Below are positions 895-60,928 of a stretch of DNA of 64,000 bases, piece after piece. Numbering within the stretch: position 1 is the first letter of the stretch; every line of letters begins with the position of its first letter. This DNA comes from Escherichia coli. Its GTDB lineage: Bacteria > Pseudomonadota > Gammaproteobacteria > Enterobacterales > Enterobacteriaceae. The DNA lies in NCBI RefSeq assembly GCF_044324875.1, contig NZ_CP172185.1; one strand, written 5' to 3'. The notes below the pieces were generated by a model. The model saw nothing but the letters and a program-made list of their open reading frames with translations, had not been told where the DNA came from and made no database searches. The position numbers were made by a program, and so were the translations under genes.

Positions 895-2052
895 TTGAAA
901 CGTAGTCTGCTTTTTTCTGCCGTGCTGTGTGCGGCGTCATTGACCTCCGTCCATGCGGCGCAGCCGATCACTGAACCGGAGTTTGCCTCTGATATTGTCG
1001 ATCGTTATGCCGATTATATTTTTTACGGCAGCGGTGCCACGGGGATGGCGCTGGTAGTTATCGACGGTAACCAGCGCGTCTTTCGTAGTTATGGCGAAAC
1101 GCGACCTGGTAATAACGTTCGCCCGCAGCTGGATTCGGTCATACGTATTGCTTCCCTCACCAAGTTAATGACCAGTGAGATGCTGGTGAAATTGCTCGAT
1201 CAGGGGACCGTGAAGTTAAACGATCCGCTAAGTAAATATGCTCCGCCAGGCGCACGCGTACCGACCTACAATGGGACGCCCATTACGCTAGTGAATCTGG
1301 CAACCCATACCAGCGCCCTGCCCCGTGAACAGCCCGGTGGCGCGGCACATCGTCCGGTATTTGTCTGGCCAACGCGCGAGCAACGCTGGAAATACCTTTC
1401 CACTGCCAAACTAAAAGCCGCGCCGGGCAGCCAGGCCGCGTACTCCAACCTTGCGTTCGACCTGCTGGCAGATGCACTGGCGAATGCGTCCGGCAAGCCT
1501 TATACCCAGTTGTTTGAAGAGCAGATTACCCGCCCATTGGGGATGAAAGACACCACCTACACCCCCTCGCCGGACCAGTGCCGCCGTTTAATGGTTGCTG
1601 AGCGTGGTGCCAGTCCGTGCAATAACACGCTGGCGGCAATTGGCAGCGGCGGAGTCTATTCCACGCCTGGCGATATGATGCGCTGGATGCAGCAGTATTT
1701 GTCATCTGATTTTTATCAGCGCAGTAACCAGGCAGATCGCATGCAGACGTTGATTTATCAGCGCGCGCAGTTTACGAAAGTGATTGGCATGGATGTCCCC
1801 GGCAAAGCGGACGCGCTTGGTTTAGGCTGGGTATATATGGCCCCGAAAGAGGGTCGTCCAGGGATTATTCAGAAGACAGGTGGTGGTGGCGGTTTCATTA
1901 CCTATATGGCGATGATCCCGCAGAAGAACATTGGCGCATTTGTGGTGGTCACTCGTTCGCCATTGACGCGCTTTAAAAATATGAGCGATGGCATCAATGA
2001 CCTGGTGACCGAACTGAGCGGGAATAAACCGTTGGTCATCCCCGCATCCTGA
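895..2052 (+). CDS. ampH: Penicillin-binding protein AmpH (class C beta-lactamase-like DD-peptidase)
   Basis: 385-aa ORF with N-terminal signal peptide, SxxK active-site motif (SLTK) and YSN motif; length matches AmpH. Confidence 0.9.
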   Translation: MKRSLLFSAVLCAASLTSVHAAQPITEPEFASDIVDRYADYIFYGSGATGMALVVIDGNQRVFRSYGETRPGNNVRPQLDSVIRIASLTKLMTSEMLVKLLDQGTVKLNDPLSKYAPPGARVPTYNGTPITLVNLATHTSALPREQPGGAAHRPVFVWPTREQRWKYLSTAKLKAAPGSQAAYSNLAFDLLADALANASGKPYTQLFEEQITRPLGMKDTTYTPSPDQCRRLMVAERGASPCNNTLAAIGSGGVYSTPGDMMRWMQQYLSSDFYQRSNQADRMQTLIYQRAQFTKVIGMDVPGKADALGLGWVYMAPKEGRPGIIQKTGGGGGFITYMAMIPQKNIGAFVVVTRSPLTRFKNMSDGINDLVTELSGNKPLVIPAS

Positions 2053-2735
<683 letters not shown>

Positions 2736-4137: not shown

Positions 4138-4148
4138 TGGATTTGCCC

Positions 4149-5054
4149 CTATATTTCCAGACACCTGTTATCACTTAACCCATTACTGGCTTGCTGCCGT
4201 AGATATTCCCGTGGCGAGCGATAACCCAGTGCACTATGCGGATGCCATTCGTTATAATGCTCGAACGCCTCTGCAAGGTTCTTTGCTGCCGTTAACCCGT
4301 CTGGTTTGGGCATGACACTGATGTAGTCACGCTTTATCGTTTTCACGAAGCTCTCTGCTATGCCGTTACTCTCCGGACTCCGCACCGCCGTGCTCTTCGG
4401 TTCAAGCCCCAACATCCGGGCAAACTGCCGTGTTTCATTAGCCCGGTAGCATGAACCATTATCCGTCAGCCACTCTACTGGAGACGCCGGAAGCTCGTTG
4501 CCGAAGCGGCGTTCCACCGCTCCCAGCATGACGTCCTGTACTGTTTCACTGTTGAAGCCGCCCGTAGTGACCGCCCAGTGCAGTGCCTCACGGTCACAGC
4601 AGTCCAGCGCGAACGTGACTCGCAGTTTTTCTCCGTTATCACAGCGGAACTCGAACCCGTCAGAGCACCATCGCTGATTACTTTCTTTCACAGCCACTCT
4701 GCCTGTATGTGCCCGTTTCGATGGCGGTACAGCAGGTTTTCGCTCAAGCAACAGCGCATTCTGGCGCATGATCCGGTAAACACGTTTGGCATTGATCGCA
4801 GGCATACCATCAAGTTCTGCCTGTCTGCGAAGCAGCGCCCATACCCGACGATAACCATACGTTGGCAGCTCTCCGATAACATGGTGTATACGGAGAAGCA
4901 CATCCGTATCATCAGTGTGACGACTGCGGCGGCCATCCATCCAGTCATCGGTTCGTCTGAGAATGACGTGCAACTGCGCACGCGACACCCGGAGACAACG
5001 GCTGACTAAGCTTACTCCCCATCCCCGGGCAATAAGGGCGCGTGCGCTATCCAC
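4149..5054 (-). CDS. insD: IS2 transposase OrfB (InsD), DDE integrase-like
   Basis: 301-aa ORF recognised as IS2 InsD; overlaps insC in the arrangement typical of IS3-family frameshift fusion. Confidence 0.9.
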
Positions 5055-5377
5055 TTTTTTGCCCGTCCATATTCAACGGCTTCTTTGAGGAGTTCATTTT
5101 CCATCGTTTTCTTGCCGAGCAGGCGCTGGAGTTCTTTAATCTGCTTCATGGCGGCAGCAAGTTCAGAGGCAGGAACAACCTGTTCTCCGGCGGCGACAGC
5201 AGTAAGACTTCCTTCCTGGTATTGCTTACGCCAGAGAAATAACTGGCTGGCTGCTACACCATGTTGCCGGGCAACGAGGGAGACCGTCATCCCCGGTTCA
5301 AAGCTCTGCTGAACAATTGCGATCTTTTCCTGTGTGGTACGCCGTCTGCGTTTCTCCGGCCCTAAGACATCAATCAT
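5012..5377 (-). CDS. insC: IS2 OrfA (InsC), HTH DNA-binding protein
   Basis: Frame beginning [40 protein letters not shown]…, 121 aa from the internal Met of ORF 5012..5422. Confidence 0.85.
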
Positions 5378-5468
5378 CTGTTCTCCAATGACTAGTCTAA
5401 AAACTAGTATTAAGACTATCACTTATTTAAGTGATACTGGTTGTCTGGAGATTCAGGGGGCCAGTCTA

Positions 5469-7004
5469 TTCAGTATCGAACTGATCAACGTTCACATCCA
5501 ATACACCACCGTTAGTTACGGTGATGGTATTGGCGTACAGGTTGTAATCAGCACCCCAACCTGTAGATTCGGTCAACGCAACAGTACTGTAGGAGTTAAT
5601 AGTCAGATGATCGGTATCAACGTAACCATCTTCACCAATGTTCAGCGAAGAACCGTTAGTTAAATCGATAGTATCTGAAGTTAATTTAGATTCCGAAACA
5701 TTAACCTGAGAAGCATTATTAACTGTCAAGGTATCAACGATGGAACGACCTGTAGTATCCCATTCAGAACCGTTGTTCAACGCTACGTTAAATACACCGC
5801 TCTGGAAGACCTTGTCATCAACAACACGTTTCCAGTCATTGTTTTCATATGTTGCATTAGGAGTAAGGCTGTTTGTAGCAACATCATACATTGCTGACGT
5901 TTCAGCAACGTTATAAATTGCCTGACCAACCCACTTGCTTCCGTTATCAAGAGTGAGGTTCAGTTCATCAACGTTGAGGCCATCATCAGTCCAACCACCG
6001 TTGGTATCTTTCAGCCCGTCACCGTTGGAATCATGACCATTCGGATCAAAATTACTATTCCAAGTGCTGTTAAATGCAACATCGCCCATCAGCGTTGAAT
6101 TGCTGAAGTATACGTTGTTCTTCATTGCATAGTCGGAACCTGAATCAGTGAAGGACATTGCAACATCTCCCGGACCGGTATAATCACTCGGTTCACTAGA
6201 GTTGCCAAAGTGTCCTGTTTTGACATAAGTATCGCTATCCAGAATAATGTCTGAACCAGAAGTCACTGTGGAATCTTTTACAGAGATATTGTTATCCCAA
6301 GTATGAGATTCGGTAGTATAAGTTTCGTTGTAAGTATTACCTTGAGATAATGCAATACCTGCAATGCGGGAGTTATTTGAAATATTGATGTTACTTTCTA
6401 CATCAAGATTAACAGCAACACCTTCACTGGTATCAAATGTCTCATTTGTGTGTTTGGTTACATCACCATCTTTATAAGAATCAGTGAAGTAAAACGCTTC
6501 ATAATCATCATCAATGGTAGTGTTAGCAATGTTAAGAGTGAAAACATCACCATCACGCCAGTTTGTGTCAACAACAGCATCAGTGTAAAAATCATATCCA
6601 ACCAGAAGATCACTATCTGCATCCAAACGATCATAATAACCGCCTGGCTTCAAAGAAGTAATCGAACCGTGAATCACTGAATTACTGATATCAAGCTGAT
6701 TAGCAGTACTGTCTGCATAATCATGGTTCAAATAATAGGTTGAGATCGTGCCGTTAACGGTATCGCCGTTAAAGGACTGATCGAAATCACCATTGGTGTT
6801 GTTGTAATAGACAAAACCACTATAGTTTACATAGTTGCCATCTACAGTGCCTGCCTTATCCATATGATCCCAATCAAGTGCAGTAACGGGATTGTCGTAA
6901 TAAGTCCAGGTGTCATAAGTAGTTGCATTAGCCTGAGAGGTGATAGCCAGAGTGCAAGCCAATGCTAATTGTGATACTACAAGTTTCTTTTTCCAGGAGT
7001 GCAT
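5469..7004 (-). pseudogene. yaiT: Autotransporter YaiT, N-terminal (signal peptide + passenger) fragment; stop lies inside the IS2 terminus
   Basis: ORF 5466..7004 starts MHSWKKKLVVSQLALACTLAITSQANA (signal peptide); Asn/Thr/Asp-rich passenger; terminates at a stop contributed by the IS2 end. Confidence 0.8.
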
Positions 7005-12015: not shown

Positions 12016-12566
12016 TAAAAGAATTAGTCGTTATCGCACAGATGATTTTATTCTTAGCAAAAAAGCGGCAAAGGAAAGATTAAATATGCAATTACACCCA
12101 CGCTGACAATTCAGTAAGTTACTGCACTTCATTTTTATTAATGCATAAACAAGCAGAACATAATGTCTTTTATTTTATTAACAGCAATATATATAATGAA
12201 ATCATTATATTCACATTGCATATATAACTGTATCATTCTCAATCAACCACATAATACATTCACATAATGTATATAATCCATATTTGTGCCTAGAACATAT
12301 TTTTAATATGTAATTAATTGACAAACTAAATCACATCTAAATACAATATATAAAACAAAATAACTATACAAACCAAACACACAAACACTTAACATATGAA
12401 TTACATAAAAGATTACGCAGTCGTATCCCCGTACCTGAAAGCCCCTTATTTTTCAGCTATCAGTAATTTTTAACACTTAAAAATTAGCATCTGTCTGTGC
12501 CAGAGATTACGTCTCTGCGAGCGTCGTTGTGCTTGTAGTATAATAAATAAAATGGAGTGTCATTAA
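12016..12566. promoter_or_regulatory. AT-rich ~550-bp divergent intergenic region between tauA and yaiS (promoter region; candidate nucleoid-protein binding)
   Basis: No ORF of 60 aa or more on either strand; long A/T tracts and A/C-rich runs (acaaaccaaacacacaaacac); lies upstream of both divergent gene blocks. Confidence 0.5.
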
Positions 12567-13238
12567 GTGGATAAGGTTTTAGATTCAGCCATCCTTTCTT
12601 CGGCAAATAAAAGAAAGGGTATCCTTGCTATTGGCGCACATCCTGACGATATAGAATTGGGCTGTGGCGCGTCGCTTGCTCGTCTTGCGCAAAAAGGAAT
12701 TTATATCGCAGCCGTGGTGATGACTACCGGCAACTCTGGCACAGATGGAATAATCGATCGCCATGAAGAATCGCGCAACGCCCTAAAGATATTAGGGTGC
12801 CACCAAACTATTCATCTTAATTTTGCTGACACCCGCGCGCATTTACAGCTCAATGATATGATTTCCGCCCTGGAAGATATCATTAAAAATCAAATTCCTT
12901 CTGATGTTGAAATCATGCGGGTATATACCATGCATGATGCCGACCGCCATCAGGATCATCTCGCTGTTTATCAAGCTTCAATGATTGCCTGCCGCACTAT
13001 TCCACAAATTCTCGGCTACGAAACCCCGAGTACCTGGCTTTCATTTATGCCTCAGGTTTTTGAATCCGTTAAAGAAGAATATTTCACAGTCAAACTTGCT
13101 GCATTAAAAAAACATAAAAGCCAGGAACGACGCGATTATATGCGTCATGATCGCCTGCGTGCAGTTGCACAATTTCGCGGGCAACAGGTCAATAGCGGTC
13201 TGGGTGAAGGCTTTGTAATTCATAAAATGATTCTTTGA
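12567..13238 (+). CDS. yaiS: LmbE/PIG-L family deacetylase
   Basis: GTG start preceded by GGAG; signature AHPDDIE near N-terminus; 223 aa as drawn, exact start uncertain. Confidence 0.7.
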   Translation: MDKVLDSAILSSANKRKGILAIGAHPDDIELGCGASLARLAQKGIYIAAVVMTTGNSGTDGIIDRHEESRNALKILGCHQTIHLNFADTRAHLQLNDMISALEDIIKNQIPSDVEIMRVYTMHDADRHQDHLAVYQASMIACRTIPQILGYETPSTWLSFMPQVFESVKEEYFTVKLAALKKHKSQERRDYMRHDRLRAVAQFRGQQVNSGLGEGFVIHKMIL

Positions 13239-13247
13239 GCAAATTGC

Positions 13248-14444
13248 ATGAAAACCTGGATATTTATATGTATGGCCGTAGCAATATTGCTATGGTTCCT
13301 GAGTACGTTAAGGCGTAAGCCCAGCCAAAAAAAAGGTTGTATTGACGCCATTATACCTGCGTATAACGAAGGCCCGTGTCTGGCACAGTCACTGGATAAT
13401 CTACTGCGTAACCCTTATTTTTGCCGGGTAATTTGCGTTAACGACGGCTCCACGGACAATACCGAAGCGGTCATGGCGGAAGTCAAACGCAAATGGGGCG
13501 ACCGCTTTATTGCCGTCACGCAAAAAAATACCGGTAAAGGTGGTGCGCTGATGAATGGCCTCAATTACGCCACCTGCGACCAGGTTTTTTTAAGTGATGC
13601 CGACACCTATGTTCCGCCCGATCAAGACGGAATGGGCTATATGCTGGCAGAAATAGAGCGCGGTGCTGATGCCGTAGGCGGCATTCCCTCTACTGCGTTG
13701 AAAGGCGCGGGTCTGTTACCGCACATCCGCGCGACCGTAAAGTTGCCGATGATTGTTATGAAGCGCACGCTACAGCAGCTCCTGGGCGGCGCACCGTTTA
13801 TTATCAGCGGTGCCTGCGGGATGTTCCGTACTGATGTATTGCGTAAGTTCGGTTTCTCCGATCGTACTAAAGTCGAAGACCTTGATCTCACCTGGACATT
13901 GGTGGCAAACGGCTATCGTATTCGGCAGGCGAATCGCTGCATCGTATACCCACAGGAATGCAACAGCCCGCGTGAGGAGTGGCGTCGCTGGCGGCGTTGG
14001 ATTGTGGGCTACGCGGTCTGTATGCGCCTGCATAAAAGGCTTTTATTTAGCCGCTTCGGTATCTTCAGTATATTTCCTATGCTGTTGGTTGTGCTTTATG
14101 GCGTTGGGATTTATCTCACTACCTGGTTTAATGAATTCATTACCACCGGGCCGCATGGTGTGGTGTTGGCAATGTTTCCGCTTATCTGGGTCGGCGTAGT
14201 TTGTGTTATTGGTGCTTTTAGCGCCTGGTTTCATCGTTGCTGGTTGTTGGTGCCTTTAGCACCGCTTTCCGTTGTGTATGTATTATTAGCTTACGCCATC
14301 TGGATTATTTATGGACTTATTGCCTTTTTTACTGGACGCGAACCTCAGCGCGACAAACCCACCCGCTATTCCGCACTGGTGGAAGCGTCAACCGCTTATT
14401 CCCAACCTTCTGTCACAGGAACTGAAAAACTTTCTGAAGCTTAA
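13248..14444 (+). CDS. yaiP: Membrane-embedded family-2 glycosyltransferase (synthase-like)
   Basis: 398 aa; N-terminal TM, GT2 core with DAD motif (FLSDADTYV) and RRW-containing segment (EEWRRWRRW), then several C-terminal TM helices. Confidence 0.8.
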   Translation: MKTWIFICMAVAILLWFLSTLRRKPSQKKGCIDAIIPAYNEGPCLAQSLDNLLRNPYFCRVICVNDGSTDNTEAVMAEVKRKWGDRFIAVTQKNTGKGGALMNGLNYATCDQVFLSDADTYVPPDQDGMGYMLAEIERGADAVGGIPSTALKGAGLLPHIRATVKLPMIVMKRTLQQLLGGAPFIISGACGMFRTDVLRKFGFSDRTKVEDLDLTWTLVANGYRIRQANRCIVYPQECNSPREEWRRWRRWIVGYAVCMRLHKRLLFSRFGIFSIFPMLLVVLYGVGIYLTTWFNEFITTGPHGVVLAMFPLIWVGVVCVIGAFSAWFHRCWLLVPLAPLSVVYVLLAYAIWIIYGLIAFFTGREPQRDKPTRYSALVEASTAYSQPSVTGTEKLSEA

Positions 14445-14561
14445 TGTTAAAGAGAAAATATTCAGATTGCAGACCAGGTAATTATTGATGAAACTGCAGG
14501 TGAAGTTGTTATCGGAGCGAATACCCGTATTTGTCACGGTGCCGTTATTCAGGGTCCGGTA

Positions 14562-15002
14562 GTGATTGGCGCAAACTGCCTGATAGGTAATTATGCGTTT
14601 ATTCGTCCTGGCACAATAATCAGCAATGGCGTAAAAATTGGTTTTGCCACCGAAATTAAAAATGCGGTTATTGAAGCGGAAGCAATGATTGGTCCGCAAT
14701 GCTTTATCGCCGACTCGGTAGTTGCAAACCAGGCATATTTGGGCGCACAAGTACGTACCAGTAATCATCGTCTGGATCAACAGCCCGTGTCTGTTCGAAC
14801 TCCAGAGGGAATTATCGCTACCGAATGCGATAAATTAGGTTGTTATATCGGGCAGCGTTCACGCCTTGGCGTACAAGTTATTATTTTGCCTGGGCGAATT
14901 ATTTCCCCGAACACGCAACTTGGCCCGCGCGTGATTGTAGAACGTAATTTACCTACCGGAACTTATTCACTCCGACAAGAACTTATCCGTACAGGAGATT
15001 AA
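14562..15002 (+). CDS. yaiX: Hexapeptide-repeat acyltransferase (YaiX-like); 5' end uncertain, possibly truncated
   Basis: Left-handed beta-helix repeats (VIGANCLIGNYAFIRPGTIISNGVKIG…). Frame is open back to 14454, directly after the yaiP stop, with no in-frame ATG before the GTG at 14562. Confidence 0.55.
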   Translation: MIGANCLIGNYAFIRPGTIISNGVKIGFATEIKNAVIEAEAMIGPQCFIADSVVANQAYLGAQVRTSNHRLDQQPVSVRTPEGIIATECDKLGCYIGQRSRLGVQVIILPGRIISPNTQLGPRVIVERNLPTGTYSLRQELIRTGD

Positions 15003-15003
15003 A

Positions 15004-15777
15004 ATGATAAAACGGACGTTATTAGCGGCGGTCATTTTTAGCGCATTGCCCGCTTATGCCGGGTTAACTTCCATTACCGCGGGCTACGATTTTACCGATT
15101 ATTCTGGCGATCATGGCAACCGTAATTTAGCGTATGCTGAACTGGTGGCGAAAGTTGAAAACGCAACGCTGCTTTTTAATCTTTCCCAGGGGCGTCGTGA
15201 TTATGAAACTGAACATTTCAATGCCACTCGCGGTCAGGGTGCGGTCTGGTATAAATGGAATAACTGGCTGACAACCCGAACGGGTATTGCCTTTGCGGAT
15301 AATACGCCGGTCTTTGCCCGCCAGGATTTTCGTCAGGATATTAACCTGGCACTGTTGCCAAAAACGCTTTTCACGACCGGTTATCGCTACACGAAATATT
15401 ACGATGATGTCGAAGTCGATGCCTGGCAAGGCGGCGTATCACTCTATACTGGCCCGGTGATCACCAGCTATCGCTATACCCATTATGACTCCAGCGATGC
15501 AGGTGGTAGTTACAGCAATATGATTTCCGTGCGTCTGAATGACCCGCGCGGCACTGGTTATACGCAACTATGGCTAAGCCGCGGAACAGGTGCTTACACC
15601 TATGACTGGACGCCAGAAACACGCTACGGCAGCATGAAGAGCGTCAGTTTGCAACGTATTCAACCGCTGACTGAGCAACTTAATCTCGGGCTGACGGCAG
15701 GTAAAGTGTGGTACGACACCCCAACCGATGATTATAACGGTCTGCAACTTGCAGCCCATCTGACCTGGAAATTCTGA
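15004..15777 (+). CDS. yaiO: Outer-membrane beta-barrel protein YaiO
   Basis: 257 aa; signal peptide MIKRTLLAAVIFSALPAYA; alternating aromatic residues and C-terminal …HLTWKF ending in Phe, typical of OM barrels. Confidence 0.8.
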   Translation: MIKRTLLAAVIFSALPAYAGLTSITAGYDFTDYSGDHGNRNLAYAELVAKVENATLLFNLSQGRRDYETEHFNATRGQGAVWYKWNNWLTTRTGIAFADNTPVFARQDFRQDINLALLPKTLFTTGYRYTKYYDDVEVDAWQGGVSLYTGPVITSYRYTHYDSSDAGGSYSNMISVRLNDPRGTGYTQLWLSRGTGAYTYDWTPETRYGSMKSVSLQRIQPLTEQLNLGLTAGKVWYDTPTDDYNGLQLAAHLTWKF

Positions 15778-40339: not shown

Positions 40340-41275
40340 AATTATCCACGGTTCAGGCCTGTGGGCATGATAAGACGCGTCAGCGTCGCATCAGGCATCT
40401 GCGCACGGTGTCGGATGCGGCGCGAGCGCCTTATCTGACCTACGGTTCAGACCTGTAGGCATGATAAGAGGCACCAGCGTCGCATCAGGCATCTGCGCAC
40501 GGTGTCGGATGCGGCGCGAGCGCCTTATCCGACCTACGGTTCAGGCCTGTAGGCATGATAAGACGCGCCAGCGTCGTATCAGGCATCTGCGCACGGTGTC
40601 GGATGCGGCGCGAGCGCCTTATCCGACCTACGGTTCAGGCCTGTAGGCATGATAAGACGCACCAGCGTCGCATCAGGCATCTGCGCACGGTGTCGGATGC
40701 GGCGCGAGCGCCTTATCCGACCTACGGTTCAGACCTGTAGGCATGATAAGACGCGCCAGCGTCGCATCAGGCATCTGCGCATGGTGTCGGATGCGGCGCG
40801 AGCGCCTTATCCGACCTACGGTTCAGGCCTGTAGGCATGATAAGACGCACCAGCGTCGCATCAGGCATCGGCGCACGGTGTCGGATGCGGCGCGAGCGCC
40901 TTATCCGACCTACGGTTCAGGCCTGTAGGCATGATAAGACGCGCCAGCGTCGTATCAGGCATCTGCGCACGGTGTCGGATGCGGCGCGAGCGCCTTATCC
41001 GACCTACGGTTCAGACCTGTAGGCATGATAAGACGCGCCAGCGTCGCATCAGGCATCGGCGCACGGTGTCGGATGCGGCGCGAGCGCCTTATCCGACCTA
41101 CGGTTCAGGCCTGTAGGCATGATAAGACGCGTCAGCGTCGCATCAGGCATCGGCGCACGGTGTCGGATGCGGCGCGAGCGCCTTATCCGACCTACGGTTC
41201 AGGCCTGTAGGCATGATAAGACGCGTCAGCGTCGCATCAGGCATCGGCGCACGGTGTCGGATGCGCCACACGACG
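40340..41275. repeat. Tandem REP/BIME array, about 10 copies of a 94-bp unit
   Basis: Unit GCCTGTAGGCATGATAAGACGCGCCAGCGTCGCATCAGGCATCTGCGCACGGTGTCGGATGCGGCGCGAGCGCCTTATCCGACCTACGGTTCAG recurs with exact 94-bp period; ORF-track starts at 40461, 40555, … 41119 are 94 bp apart. Each unit holds two inverted REP palindromes. Confidence 0.9.
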
Positions 41276-45889: not shown

Positions 45890-46390
45890 TCATTTGTAGG
45901 GTCGAGATTGTTGTCGGATGCGACGCTATGCGTCTTATCCGACCTACAGTTCAGTTCACCCCGCAGGCCTGATAAGCCGCGTCAGCGTCGCATCAGGCAT
46001 CGGTTGTCGGATGCGACGCCATGCGTCTTATCCGACCTACAGTTCAGTTCACCCCGTAGGCCTGATAAGTCGCGTCAGCGGCGCATCAGGCATCGGTTGT
46101 CGGATGCGACGCCATACGTCTTATCCGACCTACAGTTCAGCACGCCCCGTAGGCCTGATAAGCCGCGTCAGCGGCGCATCAGGCATCGGTTGTCGGATGC
46201 GACGCTATGCGTCTTATCCGACCTACAGTTCAGTTCACCCCGTAGGCCTGATAAGCCGCGTCAGCGGCGCATCAGGCATCGGTTGTCGGATGCGACGCTA
46301 TGCGTCTTATCCGACCTACAGTTCAGTTCATCCCGTAGGCCTGATAAGCCGCGTCAGCGGCGCATCAGGCATCGGTTGTCGAATACAACC
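45890..46390. repeat. Tandem REP/BIME array, about 5 copies of a ~95-bp unit, between prpC and prpB
   Basis: Repeated GTCGGATGCGACGC…CTTATCCGACCTACAGTTCAG…GGCCTGATAAGCCGCGTCAGCG…CATCAGGCATCGGTT; ORF-track peptides repeat with about 32-aa period. Confidence 0.85.
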
Positions 46391-54129: not shown

Positions 54130-55508
54130 TTACACCACACTCCCCCACACCAGTTGTCCTTTATGGAACGTTGCCGTTCTCGGCGAGATACGCGCCACCG
54201 CCTCGGCGGAACAGGAGGCGTCCACCAGCACAAAACTGGCGTCATCCTGCGCTTTGGGCCACACGCGCTCGCCTTTTTCATTCAGCGGCAATACATCGCC
54301 AGTGGCTAAAAACAGCGAACGGGACAAATTCTGTTCGTTAGGGCGAATATAGAGCTGCGCGTACAGATTGGCTTTTTCCAGCATGTCGCCCAGGCCATAA
54401 GGTGACCAGTGGTCAATAACGCTGTCAGTTCCGGTCATGACTTTTACGCCTTTGTCGTGCAACTGTTTGAGCGGCATATGCAGCGTGCCAATCGGCACCG
54501 TCGAGGCGATAGAAATTTGCTGCGCCGCCATCCGGTGCGCCAGTTCATCTACCTGTTGTTCGTTGAGCGTTGCCAACGCAAAGGCGTGACTGATGGTCAG
54601 CTTGCCCTTCAGCTGTGGCGTTTTCTCTACCGTTTCAACCATATAATTGATGGCTGCCACACCTGCCGGAGTGGTTTCGTGCAGGTGAATATCGACGCCT
54701 TTGTCGTAGTCCAGCGCAATCTGAAACATGGTGTCGAGGGATTTTTCCATCGCGCCATCAACACTGGTTGGGTCCAGCCCGCCGACGTAATGCGCGCCCG
54801 CCTGCATCGCTTCACGCATTAAGGGTTCTGATTTCGACAGCAGCAAACCGTGCTGCGGGAAGGCGACGATTTCACACTCGAAGCCCGCCTGACGTCGCGC
54901 CAGCACCGCCTGCAAATTTTGCAGATTTTTCAGGCCGGAAACCGGTTCGATATTGCAGTGGCTGCGGGCAATGGTGGTGCCTTTCGACTGCAATAAATCG
55001 ATCAGTTTTTCCGCTCGTTCCTGAGTGTACGGTTGCAGCTCCGGCAGCATTTTCTGCTCGAGTTTGATCATGTCCTGGATGGTGGTCCTGCCGGGCGATT
55101 GAGCGAGCGCCACGGCCCGCCGTAAAAGGTTTTGTCGAGATGAATATGCATGTCGCGGGTGGTGGGCAGCATCAGCTTACCGCCAGCGTCATAGTGCGGC
55201 AGCGTGGCGTCCGGATGCTGCTTGTTCTCGCGCAGGGCAACAATTTTGCCGTTCTGAATCTCTACGGTCTGGTGCGCCGTGCGGGTCTGTACCGCCACAC
55301 CGTTTTCGTAGTCAAAACCGGTTTCCAGCAGCACGTTGTCGAGATAGTAGTGCGGGTCAGTGATTTTCATGGTGTTATTCGCGTCGCAGTTTAGGGTGCC
55401 AGAGACTGCCGCATGGGCGAGCGGCACAGAGGTACCAAACAGCGCGGCGGCGGTGACCATCTTACAGCTCTGGCTCAGAAACTCACGGCGGCTATTGTTT
55501 TTTTTCAT
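54130..55508 (-). pseudogene. yahJ: Tat-signal amidohydrolase/deaminase YahJ, split by an apparent frameshift
   Basis: ORFs 55068..55508 (146 aa, Tat motif SRREFL) and 54130..55113 (327 aa) overlap by 46 bp in different frames and together cover one amidohydrolase-length gene. Confidence 0.7.
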
Positions 55509-58132: not shown

Positions 58133-59679
58133 CAGGCTTCCTCCCCTTTGCAGATAAATTCACGCGCCAGCAATCCGGTATTGGTGCTGCTGCTTGCCAG
58201 AATTACCCCAGCATCAAGCAGCATCTGGCTTTGTTGTTCTAATGATGGCGTATCAAGATCGGTACCCAGCACATAGGCGAGAATGATCAACTCACGTCCT
58301 TCGGCAGCGGCGATCGCTTTCGCTTCTTTGATCGCATCGATGGTGGAGCCGACCGGATCTTCATGCGATCCAAATCCGAGCACAAAATCCATCACGATCA
58401 CCGCCACTTCTGGATCGCGCGCTTCTTCGATCAAGCGACTGATGCGGTTGGTCGGGTCAATCATTGGATGCGGCTTGCCGTTGGTGAAGTCGTCATCACC
58501 AAAGTCGAGGAAGGTGTGTTTGATGCTGCGGCTGATATCTTGCAGGCGGAATTCCGGATCGGGCTGAATGTTGCTGTAGACATCGCCGTGTTTTTCCATC
58601 ACCGCGAACATCGTTTCGTCGCACAGCGTGCCGCCGCAGAACAGGCCACGAATGTATTTCTGTTGCGGTTGCAGGCGAGCGCGCACGTCAGCAATCAATG
58701 GCTGGTTCAGGGTATGCAGGTCGAGATGTTCTTGTTTCACACCGGAGAGCATCACCGCTTTTAGTGCCGCCTCTTTGGTGCCGCGAGCAAACTGTAGCCC
58801 CTGCTCATCCACTGGCGTTTCGCCACGACCGAGGAAGCAGACTACCACTGGCTTACGGCAGGCGCGTGCGCGTTCCAGCACTTTGCGGGCCACCGCAGGC
58901 GCTGGCGGTTTGGAGATAAGCACAATGATTTCAGTTTGCGGATCGTTTTCCAGCATCCCGATGGCGTCGAGCATCATCAGGCCGCCGATTTTCTCGCTCA
59001 GGTCGCGCCCGCCGGTGCCGATCAGTTGCGAAACGCCGCCGCCAAATTCATGAATGCGGACGCTCAGCTCCTGGCTGCCGGTGCCGGATGCGCCAACAAT
59101 ACCGATGTTGCCGCGACGCACGGCGTTACCAAAGCAGAGCGCCGCGCCGTTGATAATCGCCGTACCGCAGTCTGGCCCCATCATCAGCAGCCCTTTTTCG
59201 TGGGCCAACTGTTTGAGCGCCAGTTCATCTTCAACTGAGACGTTATCGGAAAACAGCATCACTTTAAGATCGTTTTGCAGCGCCTGACGCGCTTCGCGAG
59301 CGGCAAACAGACCGTTGACCGAAATCACCGCCAGGTTACTTTCCGGGATATGCTTTTTGGCGCTGGCAATAGTGGCATAGCGTGCTTCATGTGAACCAGT
59401 TTGAGCTTTGGTGTTGAACAGTTCTTCAATCTCCACCAGCAACTGCTCGTTGTCCGCACCCGATTTACCATTGATGACAATCATCAGGTCACCGTTTTTC
59501 GCCTGCTCCAGTTCCGGCGTCAGCAGTCCTAAATTCTTCAGCACACCTTTGTTCATTTCGGTCGCCATCGCCACAAATGCCTGCTCGACGCCGTCGAGTT
59601 TATTTGCACGCGTGGAGATAGACATCAGCGAGACAGAATCAAAATAGGTATTCGGTTTAATGACTATTTTAACTGACAT
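58132..59679 (-). CDS. yahF: FdrA-like acyl-CoA synthetase (CoA-binding, succinyl-CoA-synthetase-alpha-like)
   Basis: 515-aa ORF; Gly-rich CoA-binding segments. Confidence 0.85.
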   Translation of the reverse strand: MSVKIVIKPNTYFDSVSLMSISTRANKLDGVEQAFVAMATEMNKGVLKNLGLLTPELEQAKNGDLMIVINGKSGADNEQLLVEIEELFNTKAQTGSHEARYATIASAKKHIPESNLAVISVNGLFAAREARQALQNDLKVMLFSDNVSVEDELALKQLAHEKGLLMMGPDCGTAIINGAALCFGNAVRRGNIGIVGASGTGSQELSVRIHEFGGGVSQLIGTGGRDLSEKIGGLMMLDAIGMLENDPQTEIIVLISKPPAPAVARKVLERARACRKPVVVCFLGRGETPVDEQGLQFARGTKEAALKAVMLSGVKQEHLDLHTLNQPLIADVRARLQPQQKYIRGLFCGGTLCDETMFAVMEKHGDVYSNIQPDPEFRLQDISRSIKHTFLDFGDDDFTNGKPHPMIDPTNRISRLIEEARDPEVAVIVMDFVLGFGSHEDPVGSTIDAIKEAKAIAAAEGRELIILAYVLGTDLDTPSLEQQSQMLLDAGVILASSSTNTGLLAREFICKGEEA

Positions 59680-60160
59680 AATTCCCTCCGTAGGTTTGGC
59701 TCAGCGCACAACCATCGGCCATGCCATACAGCATGTCGCAGCCGGAACTGGAGCCAATATGTTTAATTTTTTCTATTGCCTGGGTTGAATTCCCAGGGAC
59801 ACCATAAATAATATCGTGAATAAAATGATGAATATTTTCCCGGCAGCGTTGTTGTAATGCGGCTTCCAGCGTTATGGCACTTAATAACGTGGTATTATTT
59901 CTGCCGCGTTGCAGACCGATATAAAATTCCTCTTTGTATTTTTCCGCCGGATGTCCGGAAATAAATAAAATAAGCGCCAGACCTGTTAAATAATCATCGG
60001 CTGATGGCGTAAGGCCAATCCCTAACCCCATCATACTGGCGACCGCTAAGGCGATATTTTTTTTATCGTTTACTTCCTGAATAACTGCCCGTCGTTTAAT
60101 ATGTAATTCTTTATTTAACGCCTGATAAAACGGATTATCGCCGCGATAATTAAACAGGGT
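59669..60160 (-). pseudogene. yahE: YahE-like (DUF2877) gene, 3' portion only; 5' end replaced by IS1
   Basis: Frame stays open without a start codon from the IS1 boundary at 60160 down to the stop at 59669 (…TLFNYRGDNPFYQALNKELHIKRRAVIQEV…MMGLGIG…); overlaps the yahF start. Confidence 0.65.
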
Positions 60161-60175
60161 GGTAATGACTCCAAC

Positions 60176-60679
60176 TTATTGATAGTGTTTTATGTTCAGA
60201 TAATGCCCGATGACTTTGTCATGCAGCTCCACCGATTTTGAGAACGACAGCGACTTCCGTCCCAGCCGTGCCAGGTGCTGCCTCAGATTCAGGTTATGCC
60301 GCTCAATTCGCTGCGTATATCGCTTGCTGATTACGTGCAGCTTTCCCTTCAGGCGGGATTCATACAGTGGCCAGCCATCCGTCATCCATATCACCACGTC
60401 AAAGGGTGACAGCAGGCTCATAAGACGCCCCAGCGTCGCCATAGTGCGTTCACCGAATACGTGCGCAACAACCGTCTTCCGGAGCCTGTCATACGCGTAA
60501 AACAGCCAGCGCTGGCGCGATTTAGCCCCGACATAGCCCCACTGTTCGTCCATTTCCGCGCAGACGATGACGTCACTGCCCGGCTGTATGCGCGAGGTTA
60601 CCGACTGCGGCCTGAGTTTTTTAAGTGACGTAAAATCGTGTTGAGGCCAACGCCCATAATGCGGGCAGTTGCCCGGCAT
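60176..60679 (-). CDS. insB: IS1 InsB (transposase C-terminal frame)
   Basis: 167-aa ORF recognised as IS1 InsB. Confidence 0.9.
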
Positions 60680-60873
60680 CCAACGCCATTCATGGCCATA
60701 TCAATGATTTTCTGGTGCGTACCGGGTTGAGAAGCGGTGTAAGTGAACTGCAGTTGCCATGTTTTACGGCAGTGAGAGCAGAGATAGCGCTGATGTCCGG
60801 CGGTGCTTTTGCCGTTACGCACCACCCCGTCAGTAGCTGAACAGGAGGGACAGCTGATAGAAACAGAAGCCAC
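60598..60873 (-). CDS. insA: IS1 InsA (transposition repressor)
   Basis: 91-aa [46 protein letters not shown]…. Confidence 0.92.
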
Positions 60874-60928
60874 TGGAGCACCTCAAAAACACCATCATAC
60901 ACTAAATCAGTAAGTTGGCAGCATCACC

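Follow-up and report, generated by a model that had tools for sequence, protein, structure and literature searches.

The closest described counterpart of the gene analysed here is the yaiX' (IS2A) allele of Escherichia coli K-12. Gene and yaiS-yaiP-yaiX-yaiO context are the same, and the K-12 copy too is inactivated (EcoGene 3.0, PMC3531124; PMC13058169), by a different and independent lesion: a 1.3-kb IS2 inserted at GTAAT, accompanied by a nonsense codon in yaiS. Repair of K-12 yaiX is reported to lead to YaiP-dependent vegetative clumping (EcoGene 3.0, PMC3531124). The 71-aa K-12 YaiX fragment was the subject of a study published in 2026 (PMC13058169). An overexpressed K-12 fragment without the N-terminal flank still gave ampicillin resistance (PMC13058169), and a truncated YaiX product is therefore not necessarily inert. 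The locus described below differs from that of K-12 by a 1-bp deletion located 130 bp upstream, by an empty IS2 target, and by an intact yaiS.

At the protein level, the closest relative of known structure is the C-terminal left-handed beta-helix (LbH) domain of Sulfolobus tokodaii ST0452 (PDB 5z09, 2ggo), of which residues 241-398 match residues 62-219 of YaiX, along the full length of the beta-helix (phmmer, E = 3e-21). The LbH domain of GlmU is a more distant match (phmmer against the PDB, E = 2e-8 and weaker). Unlike these two proteins, YaiX has no nucleotidyltransferase domain and carries a short N-terminal segment of its own, marked by two tryptophans (WW). Intact YaiX scores 64.2 bits with the Pfam profile Hexapep (cut-off 27) and 68.4 bits with LbH_EIF2B (cut-off 54), and its AlphaFold2 model consists of short beta-strand coils with pLDDT values of 96-98. 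It thus shows both the hexapeptide-repeat profile matches and the beta-helix fold expected of LbH acyltransferases, and on these grounds we class it as a predicted stand-alone left-handed beta-helix acetyltransferase.

The yaiX locus

The window, by which we mean the whole stretch of 64,000 nucleotides of E. coli contig NZ_CP172185.1 (assembly GCF_044324875.1) that was analysed, includes the tauA/yaiS/yaiP/yaiX/yaiO/frmRAB region on the + strand. The first gene of the cassette, yaiS (12567..13238, + strand), is a full ORF of 223 codons encoding a PIG-L family deacetylase (Pfam PIG-L, 88.8 bits). It is followed by yaiP (13248..14444, + strand, ending in TAA 14442-14444), an intact gene for a family-2 glycosyltransferase (GT2; Pfam Glycos_transf_2, 98.1 bits) whose product is recorded as an identical protein on 447 contigs. 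The last gene, yaiO (15004..15777, + strand), encodes an outer-membrane beta-barrel (Pfam YaiO, 92.7 bits). It begins 1 nt past the yaiX stop and has a strong Shine-Dalgarno (SD) sequence of its own (duplex energy of -7.4 kcal/mol). The position of yaiX, between the GT2 and yaiO barrel genes and downstream of the PIG-L deacetylase gene, is that of its orthologues: the order PIG-L/GT2/LbH/YaiO was also found in other E. coli, in Salmonella, in Citrobacter, and in a distant metagenome-assembled genome.

Several further observations concern the cassette. In the window the yaiS stop lies 10 nt before yaiP, and yaiS is full length, like its homologues, whereas K-12 has a CAG to TAG change at codon 186. 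The full-length yaiS ORF is labelled as an incomplete pseudogene in several RefSeq genomes, for example in ECA64, which looks like an annotation artefact. A scan for promoters and terminators gave a plausible promoter at 12318-12347, upstream of yaiS, and nothing specific to yaiX. Pairs of GT2 and LbH genes resembling yaiP-yaiX also occur on plasmids, where we found 14-20 places, including one on the 127-kb E. coli plasmid NZ_AP024127.1 (58037-58107) and a plasmid homologue of 199 aa (P0051).

A missing base in yaiX

The peculiarity of yaiX in the window is that its LbH body seems to lack a start. The frame that encodes the LbH/hexapeptide acetyltransferase domain (14451..15002, + strand) follows a TAA at 14448-14450 and is open from 14451, 6 nt past the yaiP stop and not from 14454 as in the initial annotation, to the stop at 15000-15002. 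The first ATG, GTG, or TTG in this frame is the GTG at 14562, which had been correctly listed as its first usable start and correctly placed within the repeat domain. In the intact 230-aa YaiX this codon is residue 85, and it lies inside the domain, because the Pfam matches start at about residue 47 (LbH_EIF2B 47-146, Hexapep from 66) and the AlphaFold2 beta-helix at about residues 51-58. The accompanying claim that the frame has no ATG is accurate up to GTG 14562 but not beyond, since an ATG at 14685-14687, deep in the domain, results from a Thr to Met variant of the window's lineage. A run of 37 codons without ATG, GTG, or TTG has a chance of about 0.15 by simple codon counting and is not improbable on its own. 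The start-less stretch, NIQIADQVIIDETAGEVVIGANTRICHGAVIQGP, nevertheless aligns with conserved residues of the homologues, and there is therefore coding sequence upstream of any usable start.

We propose that one missing A separates the LbH body from its true start and so produces the apparent lack of a start codon; this is very probably the case, and equally so for a real mutation and for a slip in base calling. The window reads GAGAAAATATT, with four adenines (A4) at 14455-14458 on the + strand, 11-14 nt past the yaiP stop, whereas strain 7/2, strain 19AR0646, and K-12 read GAGAAAAATATT, with five (A5). Aligning the window with the three strains opens a single gap, in the A run, and all relatives examined have A5 at this place. 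Of 5,426 complete E. coli genomes, 4,915 were matched by an 801-nt query spanning the yaiP-yaiX junction, and every one of the 36 full-length matches listed spans 802 nt.

With A5, the LbH frame reaches back into the 3' end of yaiP and gives a protein of 230 aa from the ATG at 14311 or of 193 aa from the CTG at 14422, the longest A5 ORF being one of 236 aa that starts at an ATG further upstream (strain 7/2). The last 134 nt of yaiP thereby overlap the native 5' end of yaiX. With the A4 of the window, start and LbH body are in different frames because of the base lost from the A5 run. The native upstream frame remains as a 5' remnant (14311..14481, + strand), delimited from the ORF list, the alignments, and the RefSeq CDS of relatives. 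It consists of 49 native codons (MDLLPFLLDANLSATNPPAIPHWWKRQPLIPNLLSQELKNFLKLNVKEK; MDLLPF...WWKRQ...NVKEK), seven out-of-frame codons (IFRLQTR), and a TAA at 14479-14481, and it holds both the WW motif (14377-14382) and the start codon used by RefSeq (CTG 14422-14424). Native residues 50-230 are encoded from 14457 onwards. An uninterrupted ORF joining the WW segment to the LbH body, as in the orthologues (193-241 aa), is thus absent from the window; what is present is an indel that is not a multiple of three and a premature TAA in the native frame, the hallmarks of a frameshift pseudogene. The 146-aa ORF of the window scores 51 bits with Hexapep, and intact E. coli YaiX (193 aa, named acetyltransferase or LbetaH domain-containing protein in RefSeq, for example WP_072170828.1) is 97-98% identical to the window in amino acids over the LbH body, differing from it in the one A that keeps start and body in the same frame.

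In the light of these comparisons, the idea that the N-terminal part of the gene has been lost is nearly correct. The 49 codons have not been deleted, since they lie upstream within yaiP; they have been disconnected from the body by the 1-bp deletion. The comparison of the yaiP-yaiX junction across strains, which had been suggested as a check, shows a continuous A5 frame in the relatives and a start-less layout that is private to the window. Nor do the homologues form complete proteins of about 180 aa from this position, as they are 193-241 aa long and have the N-terminal WW segment. One database entry, P0066, departs from this with 180 aa; it begins, at an ATG of its own, close to the opening of the LbH frame, and a look-up of its genomic context gave no record.

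The expected consequences for translation would be as follows. In the intact allele, the yaiX frame would open inside the 3' end of yaiP, run through WWKRQ.LIP.LL.QE..., pass the yaiP stop, and enter the beta-helix body. Once one A is lost from the A5 run, 11 nt past the yaiP stop, ribosomes coming from any native start (ATG 14311 or CTG 14422) would translate the seven out-of-frame codons and terminate at TAA 14479-14481, leaving the LbH body (14457-14999) in the other frame, with no ATG, GTG, or TTG before residue 85. Provided that A4 is correctly called, the strain would make no full-length YaiX, with yaiP and yaiO intact. We infer a loss of function of yaiX in the window and, by analogy with the repair experiment in K-12, a probable loss of YaiX/YaiP-dependent clumping in a strain carrying A4.

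N-terminus of intact YaiX

RefSeq annotates intact yaiX as a 193-aa CDS whose CTG start lies 23 nt ahead of the yaiP stop (at 1623..2204 or 5423..6004 in the E. coli loci L001, L002, and L004, equivalent to 14422 in the window), and the codon at this position is TTG, GTG, or CTG in relatives. Several results suggest that the protein under selection begins further upstream. The tryptophans W23 and W24 (in the numbering of the 230-aa E. coli protein) are conserved in at least 90% of 54 aligned homologues, and homologues that share about 50% identity measure 204-206 aa, with M/V-W-W-R-E as their N-terminus. In the distant metagenome-assembled genome, the LbH gene starts at a GTG preceded by GAGG as SD and overlaps the GT2 gene by 14 nt; E. 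coli has CAC at the position of the start codon of these distant homologues, and ATG 14311 is its only canonical in-frame start upstream of WW.

The conservation of the two overlapping frames points in the same direction. We compared them between four enterobacterial loci that share the same geometry. Within the overlap, yaiP is the more conserved frame in the first 22 codons (identities of 0.73-0.91 vs 0.45-0.77 for yaiX), whereas from WW to the yaiP stop the order is reversed (0.59-0.82 for yaiX vs 0.41-0.59 for yaiP). In six out of six pairwise comparisons, it is at WW that yaiX takes over from yaiP as the better conserved frame. The AlphaFold2 model of the 230-aa YaiX has pLDDT values of 52-60 for residues 1-20 and of 79-87 for residues 21-50, and the values of 96-98 given above are those of the helix. 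Given the conservation of WW, the starts of the homologues, the switch between frames, and the pLDDT profile, the N-terminal segment is best read as real coding sequence, with the selected YaiX predicted to begin at WW. As this segment lies 15 codons upstream of the CTG, the RefSeq model of 193 aa probably omits about 15 conserved N-terminal residues. None of the candidate start codons of intact yaiX has a good SD, as judged from anti-SD duplex energies. The choice of the native start is irrelevant to the conclusion on the frameshift, because all candidates upstream of the conserved segment precede the deletion.

As in other same-strand overlapping genes of operons, the start of the LbH gene falls within the GT2 gene in all cassettes examined. 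This overlap is 95 nt long in Salmonella and 119 nt long in Citrobacter; for E. coli it comes to 23 nt from the CTG or 134 nt from the ATG. Compared with same-strand overlapping gene pairs, the overlap in Enterobacteriaceae would be unusually long if the ATG were the start.

Distribution of the A4 allele

We searched for the A4 allele in several collections. None of the 3,934 RefSeq genomes that matched a 70-nt A4 query across the site matched it exactly, and the same was true of the 4,110 genomes matched when this query was given the majority SNP background. With the A5 version, matches were obtained in 4,275 genomes, ungapped in every row sampled. The A4 40-mer was absent from the GTDB species representative genomes and from metagenome contigs (0 vs 77 contigs with the A5 40-mer). 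An uninterrupted yaiX ORF of 230 codons is present in 61 of the 69 complete metagenomic copies, and all 10 contigs with a YaiP identical to that of the window have A5. One of them, the draft genome GCA_044690745.1, is 99.95% identical to the window over 6.2 kb and differs from it by two substitutions and the A indel. Once the A is restored, the 193-aa YaiX of the window is exactly identical to a protein encoded by 209 NCBI E. coli contigs, which come from the same genomes as those with the exact YaiS of the window. Exact look-ups of the 146-aa and 56-aa window products returned no record, a result that says little on privacy since pseudogenes are invisible to such look-ups; the case for privacy therefore rests on the DNA searches. 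As the A4 run is confined to the window, it is either a deletion on the terminal branch leading to its strain or a base-calling error.

The yaiX gene of GCA_044690745.1 has a peculiarity of its own. At the position equivalent to 14739 of the window, it has CAT (His) in place of the Tyr of the AYLGAQVRTSNHR motif, which is present in the window and in all 54 aligned homologues. This may be an independent damaging change.

Alternative explanations

A missing start could also be compensated for, and the initial annotation had evoked an unusual start or translational coupling to yaiP. The frames argue against both: ATG 14311 and CTG 14422 are out of the LbH frame, and the ATG at 14444, which overlaps the yaiP stop as TAATG, is in the third frame. 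The ORF that it opens (14444..14488, + strand), read directly from the sequence as MLKRKYSDCRPGNY, ends after 14 codons at TGA 14486-14488 and never enters the LbH frame. A functional shorter YaiX would then have to come from the LbH frame itself, by non-canonical initiation or by termination-reinitiation (at ATT 14460/14466 or GTG 14562). The ATT codons lie 16-22 nt past the yaiP stop, the RefSeq model of the intact gene itself uses a non-canonical CTG, the 180-aa entry P0066 starts nearby, and the K-12 fragment without the N-terminal flank is active on overexpression (PMC13058169). We nevertheless regard such a product as very unlikely. We scanned all ATG, GTG, TTG, CTG, ATT, ATC, and ATA codons with their anti-SD duplex energies and found weak SD pairing before the candidates (-2.9 to -3.3 kcal/mol). 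Initiation at ATT in E. coli has about 1% or less of the efficiency of ATG. The product would lack the conserved WW segment, and if started at the GTG also about 1-2 coils of the beta-helix, and the A4 arrangement on which it depends is found in no relative. We thus rejected a non-canonical start in the LbH frame, for which the scan offered only ATT codons with weak SD (14460, 14466, and further ones) downstream of the conserved WW segment. Programmed recoding might take the form of a +1 shift starting in the TAATG-coupled ORF, of a -1 ribosomal frameshift, or of transcriptional slippage in the A run. It has in its favour an A-rich shift site (AAAGAGAAAATAT) and a rare AGA codon that precedes AAA in the frame of that ORF. 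It is still less credible, to the point of being negligible: AAAGAGAAAATATT lacks an X XXY YYZ heptamer, transcriptional slippage would need a run much longer than A4, a search of Rfam gave no element, and, unlike in prfB, dnaX, and the transposases of the IS3 family, the shifted arrangement is kept in no relative. The class of programmed frameshift or slippage was accordingly set aside for want of a slippery heptamer or a long homopolymer and of any relative with the two-frame layout. One could imagine that the A4 allele is alive, with low-level recoding yielding a beta-helix protein that works with YaiP and the A run acting as a crude switch of yaiSPXO expression. The conceivable routes would be a +1 slip at AGA-AAA-U from the TAATG ORF and reinitiation at ATT 14460/14466. 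This is a highly speculative scenario, to which we give hardly any weight.

The last two alternatives concern the origin of the lesion. The statement that the K-12 gene is disrupted by an IS2 is confirmed by the K-12 junctions, which read GATAGGTAAT/TGGATTTGCCCC and CCAGTCTA/GTAATTATGCG where the window has GATAGGTAATTATGCG, and which place the element at GTAAT (equivalent to 14587-14591, + strand) with a 5-bp duplication. A scar left by the insertion and excision of IS2 or another IS in the window would be in line with this history, and the window does carry an IS2. Yet the target is empty, single-copy, and unaltered, and it is located about 130 bp downstream of the A4 lesion; there are no IS ends, target duplication, or extra bases at 14455-14458; and a homopolymer that has become one base shorter points to replication slippage rather than to transposition. 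An IS scar is therefore almost inconceivable, and we discarded both a K-12-type yaiX' allele and an excision scar after finding no IS2, IS ends, or altered GTAAT within yaiX. A BLAST search with the K-12 IS2 returned only the copy at 4138-5468. The more serious alternative is that the strain truly has A5 and an intact yaiX, one A having been dropped in base calling or polishing of the assembly. It is a sub-case of the frameshift explanation and differs from it only on whether the organism carries the lesion. The change from A5 to A4 is an indel in a homopolymer, typical of sequencing artefacts, A4 is in no other genome or contig searched, the 99.95% identical relative has A5, and the repaired protein is frequent, in its exact form, in the lineage (the 209 contigs mentioned above). 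On the other side, the assembly is otherwise clean, since it has only 4 indels in about 47 kb relative to the nearest complete genome (ECA64, 99.0% identity). The other genic 1-bp deletion of the window (in yahJ, at about 55086) is common to at least 24 independent contigs and hence real, and the IS1 and IS2 lesions nearby make gene decay plausible. Taken together, an artefact is a distinct possibility, and we consider a real mutation somewhat more likely. In both cases the missing A accounts for the separation of the LbH body from its start.

Other features of the window

The IS2 at 4138-5468 is full length and 98.1% identical to the IS2 that interrupts yaiX in K-12. It is located in an autotransporter (yaiT-like) region about 9 kb from yaiX. 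A copy of IS1 lies on the - strand at about 60161-60928, with an exact left inverted repeat at 60906-60928 and the insA and insB ORFs at 60598..60873 and 60176..60679. It truncates yahE (59669..60034). The DNA beyond the element corresponds to the ykgF/ykgG side, suggesting that the genes in between were deleted in an IS1-associated event.

In the amidohydrolase gene yahJ (54130-55508, - strand), the 1-bp deletion mentioned above, defined relative to E. coli ECA64, breaks the reading frame into the ORFs 55068..55508 and 54130..55113. The 146-aa N-terminal fragment of yahJ occurs exactly on at least 24 other contigs, and this frameshift is therefore inherited in a lineage. Offset self-matches in BLAST revealed two arrays of tandem repeats, one in the prpB-prpC intergenic area (40348-41265, about 10 copies with a period of about 94 nt) and one in the prpE-codB intergenic area (45910-46381, about 5 copies with a period of about 93 nt). 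Finally, near the 5' end of cynX, at about 35321, the window has an in-frame insertion of a 6-nt repeat unit (ACCAGA ACCAGA) relative to ECA64.

Implications

The apparent lack of a start very probably reflects an ordinary strain-private frameshift pseudogene or a base-calling slip. For annotation, yaiX of the window should be treated as a frameshifted pseudogene, or as a base call to recheck, and not as a gene for a 146-aa protein or one with an exotic start. The RefSeq model of 193 aa starting at CTG, which is used for thousands of E. coli genomes, is probably too short. If the A4 run is real, independent lesions have inactivated the yaiS-yaiP-yaiX-yaiO operon in different lineages, namely a nonsense codon in yaiS and an IS2 in yaiX in K-12, and the missing A in the window. 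Such independent hits would fit the observation that repair of yaiX in K-12 switches on YaiP-dependent clumping (PMC3531124).
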